Assembly: GCA_964372275.1 (NCBI GenBank)
Contig: CAYJRR010000021.1
Location: 1 to 41,944 of the forward strand
DNA length: 41,944 nt
DNA from: an uncultured bacterium
Lineage (GTDB): Bacteria; CAYJRR01
Reading direction: 5' to 3'
Part shown: one piece after another, positions 14,688 through 22,082 of the stretch
How the letters are laid out: the number at the start of each line of letters is the position of its first letter
How positions within the stretch are numbered: the stretch's first letter is position 1
Notes under the pieces: model-generated
Seen by the model: only the letters and a program-made list of their open reading frames with translations
Databases searched by the model: none
What the model was told of the DNA's origin: nothing
Translations under genes and position numbers: made by a program

Positions 14688-16358
14688 CTAGGGCTTGGCG
14701 CCCGGCGCCTTCGCCGCCCGACGCTTGGCGGAGACGCCATGGTCGACCTTCGGCAGGTAGCTCGCGAAGTCGAAGCGGTCGCCGGTCTGCTCCGCCGAGT
14801 GGCAACTTCGGCAGAACGCTTCGTCGAAGGCGGACTTGAGCTTCACCTTCTTCGGACTGGCGGCGTGCGCGCGTCCGGGGCCGTGGCACGCCTCGCACTG
14901 CACGCCGGTCAGTCCGGCGATGGTGAAGGGGTCGCTCGGTCCGCCCGGCTGGCGGTAGCCGGTGGTGTGGCAGCCGACGCAGTCGAAGTCGAGTGCGTGC
15001 CGTTCGTCGACCAGCGTCTTGTAGGCGCGGGCGTGTCCGGTCTCCATCCAGCTCTTCGACTCCGACGTGTGGCAGGCCTGGCAGACGACCGCGCCGACGA
15101 ACGGACCCTCGCTCGGTCCGGGCGCGCCGTCGGGGGTCGGGACCGAGACCGGGAGCGCGCTCATCTTCTCCAGCGCCTCGGCCACCATCACCGCCACCTT
15201 CGGGTGGTCGGGCAGGTCGCGGTTCAAGTCGACCAGCCGGTTCGACAGGCGCGAGGCGTCGTCCCCATCGGCCGGGAGGTTCTTGCGCTCGATCTCGAGC
15301 TGCTCCTTGTAGAAGACGAGCTGGTCTTCGAGCATCACCTTGCGGTCCTTGTCGCCCTCCGTCTCGACCCGCTGCGAGATCTCGGTGATCCGATCCTGGT
15401 AGGTCTCGATGCGCCCCTTCACCCGCTCGACGTTGGAGAGGTCGACGATCTGCTCAAGCGCCTGCGGCATCGGTCCGCGAAGGTCGATCTCGAGGTGCCC
15501 GAGCTGCTTCCCGCGGTGACCCGACTGCACGATCCAGGTCGAGCCGGCGCGCTGCGGATCGAGGAGCTGGCTCATGGAGTGGCCGCCGACGATCAGATGG
15601 ATGCCGGCAATCTCGTTCGCGAGCCGCAGGTCCTCCTGGAGGCCGAGGTGCGTCAGGGCGATCACGAGCGAAGCGCCTTCCGCCTTGAGCGCCGCGATCT
15701 CCCGCCGGGCCGCGTCGAACGGATCGCCGATCTTGTATCGCGGATTCTCGGAGGGAAGGACCGGTGCGCCGTCCGGGCCGGTGGGGGTGAGGACGGCGAA
15801 GATCCCGACCGTGAGCCCGCCGAACCTCTTCGTCATGCGGGGCGGGAAGACGGTCTTGCCGTCGTTCCCCGTGAGGTTCGCGCAAAGCATCGGCAGCCCG
15901 CGCGCCGCGGCGAGTCCTTGCAGGAACTCGACGCCGAGCTTCAGGTCCTGGTCACCGACGGCCAGCGCGTCGATCCCCATCGCCTTGTTCGCGTCGGCGA
16001 TCAGCTCCGCCTTGAGGCGGCGCTGGGGGATCTCCTCGTCGACGAGCGGCTCCTCGGGGAAGAAGAGGTCCCCCGCGTCGACGAGCAGGAAGGCGCGCCC
16101 GGCCTTGGCCGCCTGGTGCTTCGTCTGTTCCGTGACCTGCGCTTTCCGGGCCAGACCGCCCAGCGGGTTCTTCGGTCACCCGCAGGGCTCGATCTCTCCG
16201 TTGGCGTTGTTCTGGTAGAGGACGGTCACTCCTTTGACCGGACCGCCCGCCACCCCCGACGACGCTCCCGGGGCGCCGCCGTTGGGGCGGCAGGCGGGAT
16301 GACCGACCGAAACGGCGCCGAGGAGGCCGAGGGAGAGCAGCGAATTGGAGAGTCGCAT
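14688..16358 (-). CDS. Probable selenoprotein: exported UshA-like (5'-nucleotidase/metallophosphoesterase fold, CGU motif) domain fused to a tetraheme cytochrome c (c554-like) domain
   Basis: ORFs 16176-16358 and 14688-15980 are in frame and separated only by TGA 16176-16178: GEIEPCG-U-PKNPLGGLARK...LLVDAGD...AVGDQD...CANL...ALTHLG...GGHS. Four CxxCH motifs (CQACH, CVGCH, CEACH, CRSCH). SECIS-like hairpin downstream. 556 aa with Sec61. Confidence 0.85.
16140..16178 (-). promoter_or_regulatory. UGA plus bacterial SECIS-like hairpin
   Basis: UGA CCGAAGAACCCG CUGGGC-GGUCUG-GCCCGG AAAGCG: a 6-bp stem whose G-initiated loop starts 19 nt after UGA. Confidence 0.75.
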
Positions 16359-16509: not shown

Positions 16510-18015
16510 TCAGCCGCCTTCGGTCGCCACGTCGGCGGTGCCGGCGCTTGTCGCCGTCGCCGGCGGGGCCTTCACCGCCGCATCCTTCAGCGCCCTCGCC
16601 GCGGCGAGGATGTCGAGCGCGACGAGGTGAACGTTCTTCGACTCCCCGGTTCGCATCCACCGGCCGCCGCCTGCCCCGGGGTTGCCCGTGGCCCCGCTTC
16701 CCGTCGCAGACCCGCCCGCCGGCGGGCCGCCGGCCCCCTGCGTCGCGCCGCCGACGACGAGCTCCATGGTCCGGTCGCCGACCTTCCACGTGGCGCGCAA
16801 GGCGGGGGCGGAAAGGCCGTAGCGCTTTTCGGCGTGGGAACCCGGTGGCACTTCGGGACCTCGCTCCTTCGAGGTCAGGAGCTTCGCCTGGCGCAGGAAG
16901 GCCGATGCTTCGGCGCTGACGACGTTCTCCGGCGCGGCGGTCGTCTTCCATGCGGCGCCCTCTCCGCGGGAGACGGCCACCGTCGAACCATCGACGGTCA
17001 GCTCGAGGGAGGTTGCCTCGTCCGCCACGAAGTCGAAGAGGTTCGAATCGCGCCATTCGTCCGCATCGGCCGCGAGGTCCTCCTCCAGCGATGCGTCGGC
17101 GACGATTCGCGTGCCGGTCGCGGCGTCGCGGTACTCGACCTCGGTCACGCCGCCCCTGGGCGCGGATTTCGGGCCGACGGCGAGGATCCGCGTCGTCCCG
17201 TCGGCGAGCCCCAACGTGATCGTCGCGCGGACGGCCTCCTTCGCGGTGCCGCCGGGCGCCGCCGAGCCGCCCCCGCCCGAGGCCGGCACGGCCTGGTCGA
17301 GGAATCGTTTGGCGCTCAACCCTTCGATCCGGGTGAGGAGACCGTTCGCCTTGCCGCGATCGCCGCGCCCGGCGAAGGGAACGGTCGCGATCCACGGCGC
17401 GGTGGCGTCGGACCGGGTCATCGAGAGCATCGCGCGGCCCGATCGCTCGATCGCGATCGACCGGACCTCGTCGCGGTCGAAGGCGAACAGGCGTTTCCGC
17501 CGCAACTCGTCGAGCCCCTTTCCGAACGCGTCGAGGTTCCACCGGCGGACGGTGAAGACCGCGGGCGTCCCGCGCGCCGAGACGTAGACGGTGTCGTTCT
17601 GCGGGAACGCCCCCCCGATCTCGAGCGTCCGTTCCTTCCCCGCCGCCCGGAAGGTGACGACCGTCGCCGGCTCCTTCAGCCCCGCGCGCTCCCGCTCCGC
17701 GTCGGTCGGCGCCTCCCATACCTTGTCGCTGGCGTGCAGCGACGACAGGGTGTTCAGCATCGGCGACACCGCGCTCTCCTCGGCCGGCAGCTCGCGCGGC
17801 TCCGTGATCGTCCAGCTCTCGCCGGTCTTCTCGAGGACGAACCGTCCCCGCGGATTCTGGATCTGGATCCGGTCGATCGCGTCGCGATCCGCCTGCACCA
17901 CGGTCCGCTCCGCCTCCTCGCGCTCCTCCTTCGTCTTCGGCTTGGCGATCAGCAGGTACGCGAGCAGTACCGCGAACAACCCCAGGGTGATCCAGGTGGA
18001 GAGAAACTTTTTCAT
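16510..18015 (-). CDS. DUF4340 domain-containing protein (membrane-anchored)
   Basis: N-terminal TM, W.ITEPRELPA, GL.EPA and YGLSAPA repeats, LRRKRLF; typical position after Gld-like ABC genes. Confidence 0.75.
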   Translation of the reverse strand: MKKFLSTWITLGLFAVLLAYLLIAKPKTKEEREEAERTVVQADRDAIDRIQIQNPRGRFVLEKTGESWTITEPRELPAEESAVSPMLNTLSSLHASDKVWEAPTDAERERAGLKEPATVVTFRAAGKERTLEIGGAFPQNDTVYVSARGTPAVFTVRRWNLDAFGKGLDELRRKRLFAFDRDEVRSIAIERSGRAMLSMTRSDATAPWIATVPFAGRGDRGKANGLLTRIEGLSAKRFLDQAVPASGGGGSAAPGGTAKEAVRATITLGLADGTTRILAVGPKSAPRGGVTEVEYRDAATGTRIVADASLEEDLAADADEWRDSNLFDFVADEATSLELTVDGSTVAVSRGEGAAWKTTAAPENVVSAEASAFLRQAKLLTSKERGPEVPPGSHAEKRYGLSAPALRATWKVGDRTMELVVGGATQGAGGPPAGGSATGSGATGNPGAGGGRWMRTGESKNVHLVALDILAAARALKDAAVKAPPATATSAGTADVATEGG

Positions 18016-18023
18016 CGGCGTCT

Positions 18024-19580
18024 CTAGCGGCGTCGTCGCCGGATCCAGATCGTCATCCCCACCCCGAAGATCCCCCCCGGCAGCACCAGCCCCGTCGACA
18101 ACAGCACCCACAGCGCTCCGCGGTCGGTCATCGTCACCGTGGTGAGCCCCGGATCTTTGGGACCGATCCCGATCTTCTCCCTGGCCCCCGCGGCCCAGTT
18201 CACGGCGTTCTTGAACAGGTCGACGTTCCCGGCGCCGCCTCCGATCGCCAGCGCCTTGAGGTTCGCGTTGGAGGCGAAGTCCGAATCTCCGATCACCACC
18301 GCGCGCGCGGTCTTCCCGCCGACCTTCTTCTCCACCGCGACCCCCAGGGTCACCGGACCGGGTCGATTTTTGGGGGAGGCGGGGTCGGCCTGACCGTCCT
18401 TGATGTCGACCACGAGGAGGCTCTCCTCGCTCGTCTCGAACAGCGGCGTGACGGTCGTGTCGCCGGCCGCGCCGGCCGCAGGCCCCTCGGTTGGCGAGGC
18501 CGGGACCTTCAACCCCATCGCCCGCGGAAGGACGACGGCCATCCCCTTGAGCTCGAGCGGATCGACGATCTCGTGTCGCTTGAAGGTCGGGATCACGGTG
18601 AGCGGCGTCTTCAGCCGCTGGCGGAAGTCGGCGGCGACGCCGGGAAGGGCCTCCACTCCGAGCCGGCCGATCAGTCCCTCGATGCCGGAGGTTCCCAGCG
18701 GCTCCGCCAGGACGACCAGCCCCTTCCCGCGCTCGACGTGGCGCAGGATCGCGTCGACCTCCGGCCCGCGGATCAGGCCTCGTGGGCCGGCGACGATCAA
18801 CACCGAGCAGTCGCCCGGGACCTCCACGGTCCCCTCCGCGCCGGCCGCAGGCCCCGGTGAGCCGGTTGCAGGCCCGTCCAGGGCGAGGCGTTCGCGGGGG
18901 GCCGCGTCGGCGGCGGAATCGAGCCGAACCGCCTTCGACTCGAGGTTCTCCGACTTGAGCAGGTCGGCGGCGATCGAATAGCCCTGGTCGGTGGCCGCCT
19001 CGATCTCGTACTCCCCGTGGCCGGCGAGGAAACAGGCGACGTTGGTCGTCCCTTCCATCAACCGCAGCAGTGCCGAATCGAACGCCTCTTCGCCGGTGAA
19101 CGCCGTCCCGCCGTGCTCGTCGTAGTTGAATCCGGTCTCGAAGATCTCCTTCGATTGGACGACGATCTTCCGGTCCCCGGAGGCGAAGACCGCGGCGCCG
19201 AGATCGCCTCCGAGCTCTTGCACCCGCAACGCGTCGGCCAGCGGGTTCACCGCTTCGTAGGTGACCTTCCCCTTCGACCGGACCTTGTACTCCTCGAGCA
19301 GGTCGCCGACACGGCTGTTCACGAACTGCGCGTCGGCCGACATCGACGGCGGCACGAGGAAGAAGGTGACACGCACCTCCCGGTCGAGGCGACCGAGGAT
19401 GTCGATCGTCTTGTCGCTGAGCGAGTAGGTCCCGGCCTTGGTCATGTCGATCCGGAACGGCCGGAACCGGTCGACGAGGACGTAGCCGACGACGGCGATC
19501 CCCGCCGCTGCGATCGTCGAAACGACGGCGTTCGCGCCGTGGACCCAGAATCGTTTCTTCGCGTGCGCCATGGTCGTCAT
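18024..19580 (-). CDS. GldG-like ABC transporter auxiliary component
   Basis: RIDMTKAGTYSLS, FLAGHGE, LIVAGP, VVIGDSDF, N.DLF.NAVNW and C-terminal TM ending WIRRRR; ATGA overlap with the permease stop. Confidence 0.85.
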   Translation of the reverse strand: MTTMAHAKKRFWVHGANAVVSTIAAAGIAVVGYVLVDRFRPFRIDMTKAGTYSLSDKTIDILGRLDREVRVTFFLVPPSMSADAQFVNSRVGDLLEEYKVRSKGKVTYEAVNPLADALRVQELGGDLGAAVFASGDRKIVVQSKEIFETGFNYDEHGGTAFTGEEAFDSALLRLMEGTTNVACFLAGHGEYEIEAATDQGYSIAADLLKSENLESKAVRLDSAADAAPRERLALDGPATGSPGPAAGAEGTVEVPGDCSVLIVAGPRGLIRGPEVDAILRHVERGKGLVVLAEPLGTSGIEGLIGRLGVEALPGVAADFRQRLKTPLTVIPTFKRHEIVDPLELKGMAVVLPRAMGLKVPASPTEGPAAGAAGDTTVTPLFETSEESLLVVDIKDGQADPASPKNRPGPVTLGVAVEKKVGGKTARAVVIGDSDFASNANLKALAIGGGAGNVDLFKNAVNWAAGAREKIGIGPKDPGLTTVTMTDRGALWVLLSTGLVLPGGIFGVGMTIWIRRRRR

Positions 19581-20286
19581 GCCCACCGCCGCGCCTCGAT
19601 CGAGCGCAGCGTCAAGAAGAGGAACAGCCCGGTGAAGGCGAGGTAGTAGAAGACGTCGACGGCGTCGACGATCCCTCGCGCGAAGTTCTCCAGGTGGGAG
19701 AGGAAGGAGACCGCCTTGACGGCGGAACCCAATCCGCTGGGCAACGCCTCGGAGAAGAAGCGGATCACCCAGAAGCCGAACAGCAGCGCATAGGCGACCA
19801 CCCCGGCGATCACCTGGCTCTGGGTGATCGACGAGGCGAACAGCCCGACCGACACGAACGCCGACGCGAGGAGCAGCATCCCGAGGTACTGGGCCACGAT
19901 CGGCCCGGTCTCCGGCTCCGAGACGCGGTAGAGGATCGCCGGGAAGACGAGCGTCACGCCGAACAGCGCCACGAACAGCGTCACCGCCCCGAAGAACTTC
20001 CCGAGGACGATCTCGTACTCGCGGACCGGCGAGGTGAGGAGCAGCTCCAGCGTGCCGCGCGCGTTCTCCTCGGCCACCAGGCGCATGGTGAGGATCGGCG
20101 TCACCGCCAGCATCAGGAAGGCGAGCAACCCCATCAGCGGCCGCATGCTGGCGTCGCGCGCCTCGTTCAGGTTGACCAGCCAGAACCACAGCGCGCACAA
20201 GGCGACGATCAACGCCCCCAGCACGTAGGCACGGGGGCTGGTGAACAGTCCCAGTGACTCCTTCTTCCAGATCGTGACCGTCTTCC

Positions 20287-20290
<4 letters not shown>
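19577..20290 (-). CDS. ABC-2 type permease, GldF-like
   Basis: KKE...F.SP.AY, LTMRLVAEE..RGTLELLLTSPV...IVLGKF, SSITQSQVIA and H..NF.RG..D motifs. Confidence 0.9.
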
Positions 20291-21236
<946 letters not shown>

Positions 21237-21240
<4 letters not shown>

Positions 21241-22082
21241 GTGGTCTGCTCCGTGGGGCTCGAAACCCGTGTCTCGGATCCGTATTCCCGGCCGCGCGGC
21301 GCCGTCTCCGCCGCGTCGATCGACGCCGGCGGGACCCCCTGGATCTCCGACAACGCGTGCAGGATCCAGTGGCGGGTCAGCGATTTCATCCGCTCCTGAT
21401 CGCGCGGGCCGTCGCCCGGCCAGATCGGCTTCCCGATCCGGACGTGGATGCGCGTGCTCGGCGCGAAAAGCCACGACCCCTTCTTGAGGAGGCGCGCCGG
21501 GCCGTCGACCGCGATCGGCACGATCGGGCGGCGGCTGTCGGACGCGAGCCGGAAGGCGCCGTCCTTGAAGGTGCGAAGCCGCCCGTCGAGGCTGCGCGTC
21601 CCTTCCGGGAAGATCATGATCGACACGCCGCGGGCGAGCCATTCGCGCGACTCCGCCATCGACCGGCGCGCGCTCTCGCGGTCTCCGCGCTTCAGGGCGA
21701 CGTAGCCGGCGAGCCACATCGCCTGGCCGATCACGGGGACCCAGAAGATCTCGCGCTTGCTGATCCACTTGAACGGGTGGCCGAGGAAGTAGAGGGCGAT
21801 GATGTCGGCCATGCTCTGGTGGTTGGCCGCCAGGACCACGCCCTCGCCGGCGGCGCGCAGGTGCTCCGCCCCTTCGACGACGATCCGGTTGAACGGGTTC
21901 ATCCGCAGGAGCGCGCGCGCCCAGACGGTGGCGAAGGCGTGGGCGACGTTTCGCCTCCGGTCGAACGGGAGGGCGAGCGCGCAGGTCGGAAGCATCGCCA
22001 CGAAGACGACCACGGTGACGACGACCGTCATCCCCCACATCCAGAGAGAACGAGCCAAGGCCATCGCTAGAAGGGCACCCAC
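21237..22082 (-). CDS. plsC: 1-acyl-sn-glycerol-3-phosphate acyltransferase (PlsC family)
   Basis: ANHQSMAD (HxxxxD), FPEGTRS, FKDGAF and PIVPIA motifs; alternative ATG start at 22064. Confidence 0.88.

Follow-up and report, generated by a model that had tools for sequence, protein, structure and literature searches.

A probable selenocysteine codon in a divergent UshA-like gene with a tetrahaem domain from an uncultured bacterium

Does a TGA on the minus strand of this DNA end a short gene, or is it read as selenocysteine (Sec) within a much longer one? The window, that is, the whole stretch of DNA analysed here, is the 41,944-nucleotide contig CAYJRR010000021.1 of assembly GCA_964372275.1 from an uncultured bacterium. 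Its listed open reading frames (ORFs) include one of 60 aa at 16176-16358(-), with the C-terminal end ...NNANGEIEPCG, and one of 430 aa at 14688-15980(-), which carries four CxxCH motifs. An earlier note on this DNA, made from the sequence alone, had read the first frame through its TGA and on without further stops into the second; the coordinates proved correct, the strand being minus. Translated in this way, the frame comprises 556 codons and ends in TAG, and it contains a single in-frame TGA at codon 61 in the context EPCG-U-PKNPLGG. The read-through protein reads MRLSNSLL...EPCG-U-PKNPLGGLARK...DAGD..., and M1 (ATG at 16358) is its earliest in-frame start past the upstream stop. With high confidence, the best explanation of the locus as a whole is one gene for an exported selenoprotein of 556 residues, in which UGA would be decoded as Sec and which would act in redox chemistry rather than as a phosphoesterase.

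An open frame over the TGA is unremarkable in DNA of about 70% GC (gene 69%, window 70%) and alone means little, and therefore the case depends on homology. The family profile NF041198 (UshA_like_PCGU) matches residues 40-531 over profile positions 20-518 of 519, with 354.7 bits versus a cut-off of 275, and takes in both the phosphoesterase-like and the haem domain as well as the TGA. Searched with the profile in six frames, the whole genome returned the same place with 346.8 bits and "1 TGA" within. The motif P-C-G-U/C past the first beta strand is present as E57-P58-C59-G60-U61, and C-G-C is found in 62/62 rows of the family alignment spanning this region. Moreover, three residues that are invariant in the family (G67, R71 and G96) fall after the TGA but before M127, where the next start could be. 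Since homology crosses the TGA in both respects, the frame is beyond chance. The same observations bear on the view that two separate genes are present, the 60-aa ORF and a 430-aa cytochrome starting at ATG 15980 (M127). This is how the public gene call has it, with the catalogue entry P0003 being exactly the 430-aa product, and the closest homologues (52-59% identity) are likewise called short, at 445-502 aa. Nevertheless, we regard two genes as extremely improbable: the profile match would be cut at the TGA, residues 62-126 would be left without a start codon in spite of their three invariants, and the M127 product would start partway through the phosphoesterase fold and have no signal peptide. 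Attachment of c-type haem is periplasmic, so a signal peptide is required.

The column of U61 is occupied by Cys in 26/26 full-length homologues in the protein alignment (27-37% identity), where C59 and G60 are likewise invariant. Codons at this position were also counted at species loci, using the best 80 of at least 551 relatives, and are TGC in 57, TGT in 12 and TGA in 11, with none other. A total of 80 metagenome loci, a set biased to one clade through the scan patterns, gave TGA in 47, TGC in 11 and TGT in 4, while the other 18 are fragments without the N-terminus and were unaligned. The position is thus Cys or TGA in every aligned homologue (26/26 proteins, 80/80 species loci and 62/62 aligned metagenome loci), as the earlier note had expected of a true Sec codon.

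Contigs assembled independently in the Logan collection, from three runs in two studies, have an unchanged TGA at the same three bases, and one record shows 0 differences over 345 nucleotides. They do not have the TGC or TGG that the earlier note had named as the sign of a sequencing error. The source genome is a metagenome-assembled genome (94.6% complete, 225 contigs, 4.6 Mb, 70% GC), and fragmentation of this kind is the point in favour of an assembly or sequencing error; given the contigs, the chance of such an error is negligible. Contigs of a variant population in one run (X1) carry changes at 16173, 16188, 16197, 16203 and 16230 and keep the TGA. All five are synonymous changes at third positions, in codons 62, 57, 54, 52 and 43 respectively. 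Changes that are synonymous only, on both sides of the TGA, are what purifying selection would leave in a frame running through it.

The genome also encodes the complete decoding machinery, as the earlier note had asked to be confirmed. Matches above the respective cut-offs were obtained for selA (483 bits), selB (321 bits, or 347 with a C-terminal piece), selD (349 bits) and tRNA-Sec (70.5 bits), the last of which ARAGORN also reports as tRNA-SeC with the anticodon tca. The selD gene (G000:C2:59103-60026, locus L010) itself has one in-frame TGA and is, on sequence grounds, a second selenoprotein gene of this genome. These results also bear on the possibility of a recent pseudogene, in which a Cys form suffered a TGC to TGA nonsense mutation and now yields only a 60-residue peptide. 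Such a mutation takes one base, and TGC or TGT is the codon in 69/80 species loci. However, the same codon is TGA in the remaining 11 of those loci and in 47/62 aligned metagenome loci, the diverged variant retains it amid synonymous changes only, and the 495 codons downstream are intact with every family-invariant residue retained. A hairpin of the kind expected of Sec decoding is present as well, beside the machinery. A pseudogene has very little chance of being the right explanation, and codon 61 can be taken, with very high confidence, as a genuine Sec codon in an exported protein of a catalogued family.

This hairpin is predicted in the mRNA at +16 to +33 from the U of the UGA, with the sequence CUGGGC-GGUCUG-GCCCGG, that is, a stem of 6 base pairs and a loop of 6 nucleotides. 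The loop GGUCUG occupies +22 to +27 (window 16152-16157), and 6/6 pairs form in the window sequence. A count of pairs in this fixed register replaced a naive longest-hairpin finder, which was uninformative. Over 52 distinct Sec forms, 89.7% of the cells are paired, versus 81.3 +/- 1.1 in shuffled data, and 0/500 shuffles reach the observed value. Four of the six pairs vary on either side of the stem, as at 18-31 with UA, GC and CG, and slid-register controls give at most 53% paired. In 38 Cys forms, only 1-5 of the 6 positions pair in the same register, mostly 2-4. At +22 to +24, the Sec forms have the codon GGU in 34/52 and GGC in only 5/52, versus GGC in 20/38 Cys forms. The search for a bacterial selenocysteine insertion sequence (SECIS) proposed in the earlier note was thereby answered as far as a covarying hairpin just downstream of the UGA is concerned. 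Different Sec-form hairpins were observed at four other loci, two from Blastocatellia (L086 and L113) and two from Krumholzibacteriia (L110 and L121), which are longer, with 8-11 base pairs and a GGC loop near +32. L086 and L113 differ there by a compensatory change, GCUGGCAC/GUGUCGGC versus ACUGGCAC/GUGUCAGU. This longer hairpin may be a second SECIS solution inside one protein family.

This gene adds a divergent member to the catalogued UshA-like PCGU family rather than founding a new kind. At least 551 relatives were counted among species-representative genomes, mostly Myxococcota including the cultured Sorangium and Nannocystis; Sorangium cellulosum and Nannocystis have Cys forms. The second UshA-like selenoprotein family, NF049981, matches residues 44-139 alone and with 45.8 bits versus 140, and the cytochrome c554 equivalog NF043010 scores 51.2 bits versus a cut-off of 400. 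The nearest species-level locus (L054) is a Sec form with 38% identity, and the nearest metagenome proteins have 52-59% identity. In the scan of metagenome DNA, none of the loci exceeded about 37% identity at full length, and the 55% of L194 is confined to a single segment. The 20 closest database homologues (P0004-P0023, 52-59% identity) are 446-502 aa long and cover 79-84% of the query; P0024 (44% identity) has the same short pattern, and the CGC region is absent in 30 rows of the 92-row family alignment. The short lengths of the closest homologues fit the view that gene callers systematically cut Sec forms short. The earlier note had predicted such a truncation for the gene itself, and P0003 bears it out. 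Public catalogues list the gene, and it seems its closest relatives too, as "cytochromes" of 430-502 aa that are cut at the N-terminus and have no signal peptide; the selenoprotein is hidden for this reason, and the annotation has to be corrected. In an unrelated genome (G035), two NF041198-like frames with one in-frame TGA each were observed (C1:199225-200448 and C20:59371-60624), and this pair looks like paralogous Sec forms.

The GOS selenoproteome paper of 2008 (PMC2398784) catalogued the family as "COG0737, UshA-like" with the motif CxU, in accord with the recognised selenoprotein family of uncharacterised function that the earlier note had named. It gives 76 Sec sequences and 92 Cys homologues of the UshA-like family in the GOS data and counts the family with the few major ones that lack a recognised redox motif based on Cys. 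Later reviews name the "UshA-like protein" with CxU, as COG0737 in 2022 (PMC9312934) and as NF041198 in 2026 (PMC13188914). The passages covered of these three texts make no mention of a haem domain or a function for the UshA-like family. Within the partial texts covered by the literature search, neither a functional study nor a described haem fusion was found for it. Two further papers were rejected as functional sources: PMC10454023 mentions neither cytochromes nor selenocysteine, and the sole 'UshA' in PMC9040806 is the first name of an author.

The C-terminal part of the protein is a haem domain. PF13435 (Cytochrome_C554) matches residues 425-493 with 53.5 bits versus a gathering threshold of 20.8, and the Pfam match is restricted to this part. 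Profile searches against the PDB relate residues 417-531 to cytochrome c554 (1bvb, E 2.4e-22) and to the multihaem protein 6i5b (E 1.6e-32). The four CxxCH motifs (C426/C429/H430, C460/C463/H464, C488/C491/H492 and C516/C519/H520) are invariant in 92/92 family rows, and the haem domain is for this reason the normal architecture of the family. The earlier note had put forward a fusion with a tetrahaem cytochrome; the four motifs do lie in the same protein, but the fusion is nothing special to this gene, being a constant part of the family and included in the 519 positions of NF041198. With four haems to serve, the only invariant His residues outside the motifs are H442 and H498 (92/92 rows); apart from Y534, conservation stays below 70% for every Met, Lys and Tyr of the domain.

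The N-terminal domain has the fold of a phosphoesterase. An AlphaFold2 model computed with the 92-row alignment has a mean predicted local distance difference test (pLDDT) score of 90.4 and a predicted template modelling score of 0.87, with values below 50 only at residues 1-28 and 554-556. By Foldseek, residues 40 to about 300 resemble the N-domains of 5'-nucleotidases (E about 1e-20; 1oie over 288 columns with a root-mean-square deviation (rmsd) of 2.9), and the profile search of PDB sequences gave 2z1a (E 8e-32) and SoxB (E 2e-23). Mapping of the motif positions by alignment to the Thermus 5'-nucleotidase 2z1a upheld the earlier note's description of degenerate metallophosphoesterase motifs. 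DxH has become N51-A52-N53 and GNH(D/E) has become G135-D136-Q137-D138, whereas D94-A-G-D97, H237 (THLG, the His of motif IV) and G258-G259-H260-S261 are retained, with GGHSH replaced by GGH260-S-M. Across the family, the Asp of DxH (position 51) is D in 21/62 rows and its His (position 53) is H in 9/62; D97 is found in 46/86 rows, H237 in 43/92 and H260 in 39/92. The six commonest residues at the Asn position of GNH (136) are E 36, D 21, P 15, A 10, S 4 and V 2 of 92 rows, with no Asn, and the His position of GNH is variable. Conserved instead are C-G-C, G67, G96, G142, D138 (85/92) and N161 (83/89). From the alignment, the phosphoesterase catalytic His and most metal ligands are lost family-wide. 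Helices at 310-333 and 337-359 (pLDDT above 90) form a helical hairpin ahead of the haem domain. The earlier note had seen here a charged coiled-coil insertion; a helical hairpin does precede the haem domain, but most homologues have one and it is therefore not a peculiar insertion.

Because the catalytic His and most metal ligands are lost across the family beside an invariant CGC/CGU, the earlier note's proposal of a redox enzyme rather than a nucleotidase is a reasonable inference. The protein might still be a phosphoesterase or a SoxB-like hydrolase with accessory haems, as the profile and fold resemblance of the N-domain to 5'-nucleotidases and SoxB would suggest. We consider this very unlikely. 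UshA (NF007109) scores 36.3 bits versus a cut-off of 600 and SoxB (TIGR04486), the next-best named NCBIfam match, 70.3 versus 550; the catalytic residues of DxH and GNH are replaced here and unconserved in the family, and a haem domain stands in place of the C-terminal substrate-binding domain of 5'-nucleotidases.

Sequence comparison supports decoding of the UGA at codon 61 as Sec by the SelA, SelB, SelD and tRNA-Sec of the genome, directed by the hairpin that lies 16-33 nucleotides downstream. For the redox chemistry, a mechanism can be proposed. Other selenoprotein families in which Sec stands for the second Cys of CxC typically use it for nucleophilic or redox catalysis, and for this reason the CGU pair would be the reactive centre, most simply as a couple of thiol/selenol and selenenylsulfide. 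This centre would exchange electrons with the four-haem chain, and the protein would serve in periplasmic redox catalysis instead of phosphoester hydrolysis. We tentatively favour this coupling of a Cys-Gly-Sec redox centre to the haems over the other readings, with a chance somewhat short of even.

Alternatively, Cys-Gly-Sec may not be a free redox couple but may bind a metal in a remodelled dimetal pocket or serve as the sixth ligand of a haem. Sec is a metal ligand in formate dehydrogenase and [NiFeSe] hydrogenase; D94, D97, D136, H237 and H260 are kept near the old metal site, and only the two invariant non-motif His residues, with no well-conserved Met, Lys or Tyr but Y534, are available for four haems. 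However, the Asp and His residues of the old site are unconserved in the family, as counted above for D97, H237 and H260, and a missing distal His need not mean a Cys or Sec ligand, since one haem of cytochrome c554 is five-coordinate. A ligand role is unlikely, with perhaps a modest chance of being correct, and the redox couple is preferred. A bolder reading, which we regard as distinctly unlikely, would see in the protein an unrecognised class of periplasmic selenoenzyme, in which a phosphoesterase fold stripped of its catalytic parts sets its Cys-Gly-Sec loop against a haem. The loop could then relay electrons as a selenenylsulfide, or it could be the sixth ligand (Cys/Sec) to one of the two haems that have no invariant distal His. 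If this were true, substrate chemistry at selenium would be wired directly into a four-haem wire; a His/Sec-ligated or Sec-gated c-type haem is not known to have been described, although no literature search was aimed at it.

A number of observations have to be set against the account of a redox-active selenoprotein. The run evidence comes from contigs after assembly rather than from raw reads, and the source sample may be one of the runs. For the 8 closest-type Sec forms only, covariation of the hairpin is not significant (83.3% paired versus 79.2% in shuffled data, a value reached by 49/500 shuffles). Conservation of the hairpin is partly protein-coding, because it lies within the codons of the conserved peptide LGGLA(R/K), and the shuffle test overstates the support because the 52 sequences are related, many of them from one clade. 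An Rfam search of 16050-16250 with E up to 10 gave no SECIS family, the only matches being chance ones to microRNAs and snoRNAs. The protein keeps D94/D97, H237 and H260, and given these a residual metal site may exist. Clustering of the neighbourhoods of 81 loci gave no neighbour common to more than 21 of them, and the context therefore gives no clue to a substrate. Finally, the literature search, covering texts available in part, gave no 75Se labelling, haem stain or activity for any family member. A protein with both a Cys-x-Sec motif and four haems is well worth characterising biochemically for the first time; this applies to the whole family, of which the gene in the window is one more divergent example.

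The features of the gene and its neighbours are collected in the table. Cys23, in the N-terminal region, is preceded by H-P-A, which does not make a canonical lipobox, and many homologues have L-x-[GA]-C there. A scan for promoters and terminators gave nothing promoter-like; its one terminator-like hit, within the gene, is at chance level. Upstream on the same strand, a GldG-type ABC cluster (16510-22038) is separated from the selenoprotein gene by a gap of 151 nucleotides, and this linkage is not conserved at other loci. Beyond the convergent lamin-tail gene lie TsaD and then KsgA; TsaD is also downstream at the closest locus, L054. The shared neighbours scanned at the Polyangia locus L058 are the housekeeping proteins RimM, TrmD, L19 and UPF0102 and a TPR-repeat protein. 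At two Sec-form loci (L055:2557-4788(-) and L057:2580-4862(-)), the UshA-like gene has as its divergent neighbour a multihaem cytochrome (about 750 aa) whose N-terminal region is of NapC/NirT type and which also carries c7/MtrC-like domains. This neighbour is a possible electron-transfer partner and agrees with a role in electron transfer, at these two loci only. ORFs of similar size and place were observed at L123 and L132. The genome search found no other genome with the same phylum label as the source genome (G000, in which the window is contig C21), the 40 relatives being 'same domain' only, and the lineage may be poorly sampled. The gene content of the window, with a Ser/Thr kinase bearing a PEGA domain and the lamin-tail-domain protein, and the best matches look Myxococcota-like.

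Table. Features of the putative selenoprotein gene and its neighbours, in window coordinates.
Feature	Position	Strand	Basis or remark
Complete selenoprotein gene, NF041198 UshA_like_PCGU	14688..16358	-	556 codons + TAG; ORFs, translation, profile
Predicted N-terminal export signal region, residues 1-28	16275..16358	-	Hydrophobic core LLSLGLLGAVSV; pLDDT <50
Probable UGA selenocysteine codon 61, motif E57-P58-C59-G60-U61	16176..16178	-	Alignments, codon counts, contigs
SECIS-like hairpin	16146..16163	-	Fold, 6/6 pairs, covariation, fdhF likeness
Degenerate 5'-nucleotidase/SoxB-type metallophosphoesterase domain, residues 40-300, bearing CGU	15459..16241	-	Profile, structure, alignment
Charged helical hairpin between both domains, residues 310-359	15282..15431	-	Model; most homologues
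Cytochrome c554-like tetrahaem domain, residues 417-531	14766..15110	-	PF13435; PDB profile 6i5b, 1bvb
CxxCH motif 1, C426-H430	15069..15083	-	Invariant in 92/92 rows
CxxCH motif 2, C460-H464	14967..14981	-	Invariant in 92/92 rows
CxxCH motif 3, C488-H492	14883..14897	-	Invariant in 92/92 rows
CxxCH motif 4, C516-H520	14799..14813	-	Invariant in 92/92 rows
ABC ATPase	20287..22038	-	Upstream cluster
GldG-like ABC_transp_aux/DUF7088 protein	18024..20306	-	Upstream cluster
DUF4340 protein	16510..18111	-	Upstream cluster
637-aa protein, C-terminal lamin tail domain PF00932	12742..14655	+	Convergent; about 30 nucleotides between stop codons

Several known systems resemble parts of this locus. The hairpin shares with the SECIS of E. 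coli fdhF (NC_000913.3) the GGUCUG at its top, which in both occupies +22 to +27 counted from the UGA's first base. In fdhF, SelB is contacted by the loop bases G23/U24. In the window, the loop counts six bases and the stem 6 base pairs, with no bulged U, whereas fdhF, as folded by eye, has a GGUC tetraloop on a longer stem. E. coli UshA and the 5'-nucleotidases (PDB 1ush, 1oie and 2z1a; human CD73) share the fold of the N-domain over the 288 columns at rmsd 2.9, and DAGD and GGH are kept; in contrast, the residues of DxH and GNH(D/E) are replaced here, and a haem domain is found instead of the C-terminal nucleotide-binding domain. SoxB (TIGR04486; PDB 2wdc and 4uwq) has a dimanganese site. 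It is alike in its superfamily fold, its periplasmic location and its action in a haem-containing redox pathway, but the score lies far under the cut-off, the SoxB metal-ligand positions are unconserved in the UshA-like family, and no sox genes are adjacent. Cytochrome c554 of Nitrosomonas (PF13435; 1bvb and 1ft5) and 6i5b match the C-terminal domain with its four CxxCH motifs, which, unlike in cytochrome c554, is here fused behind a domain of phosphoesterase fold.

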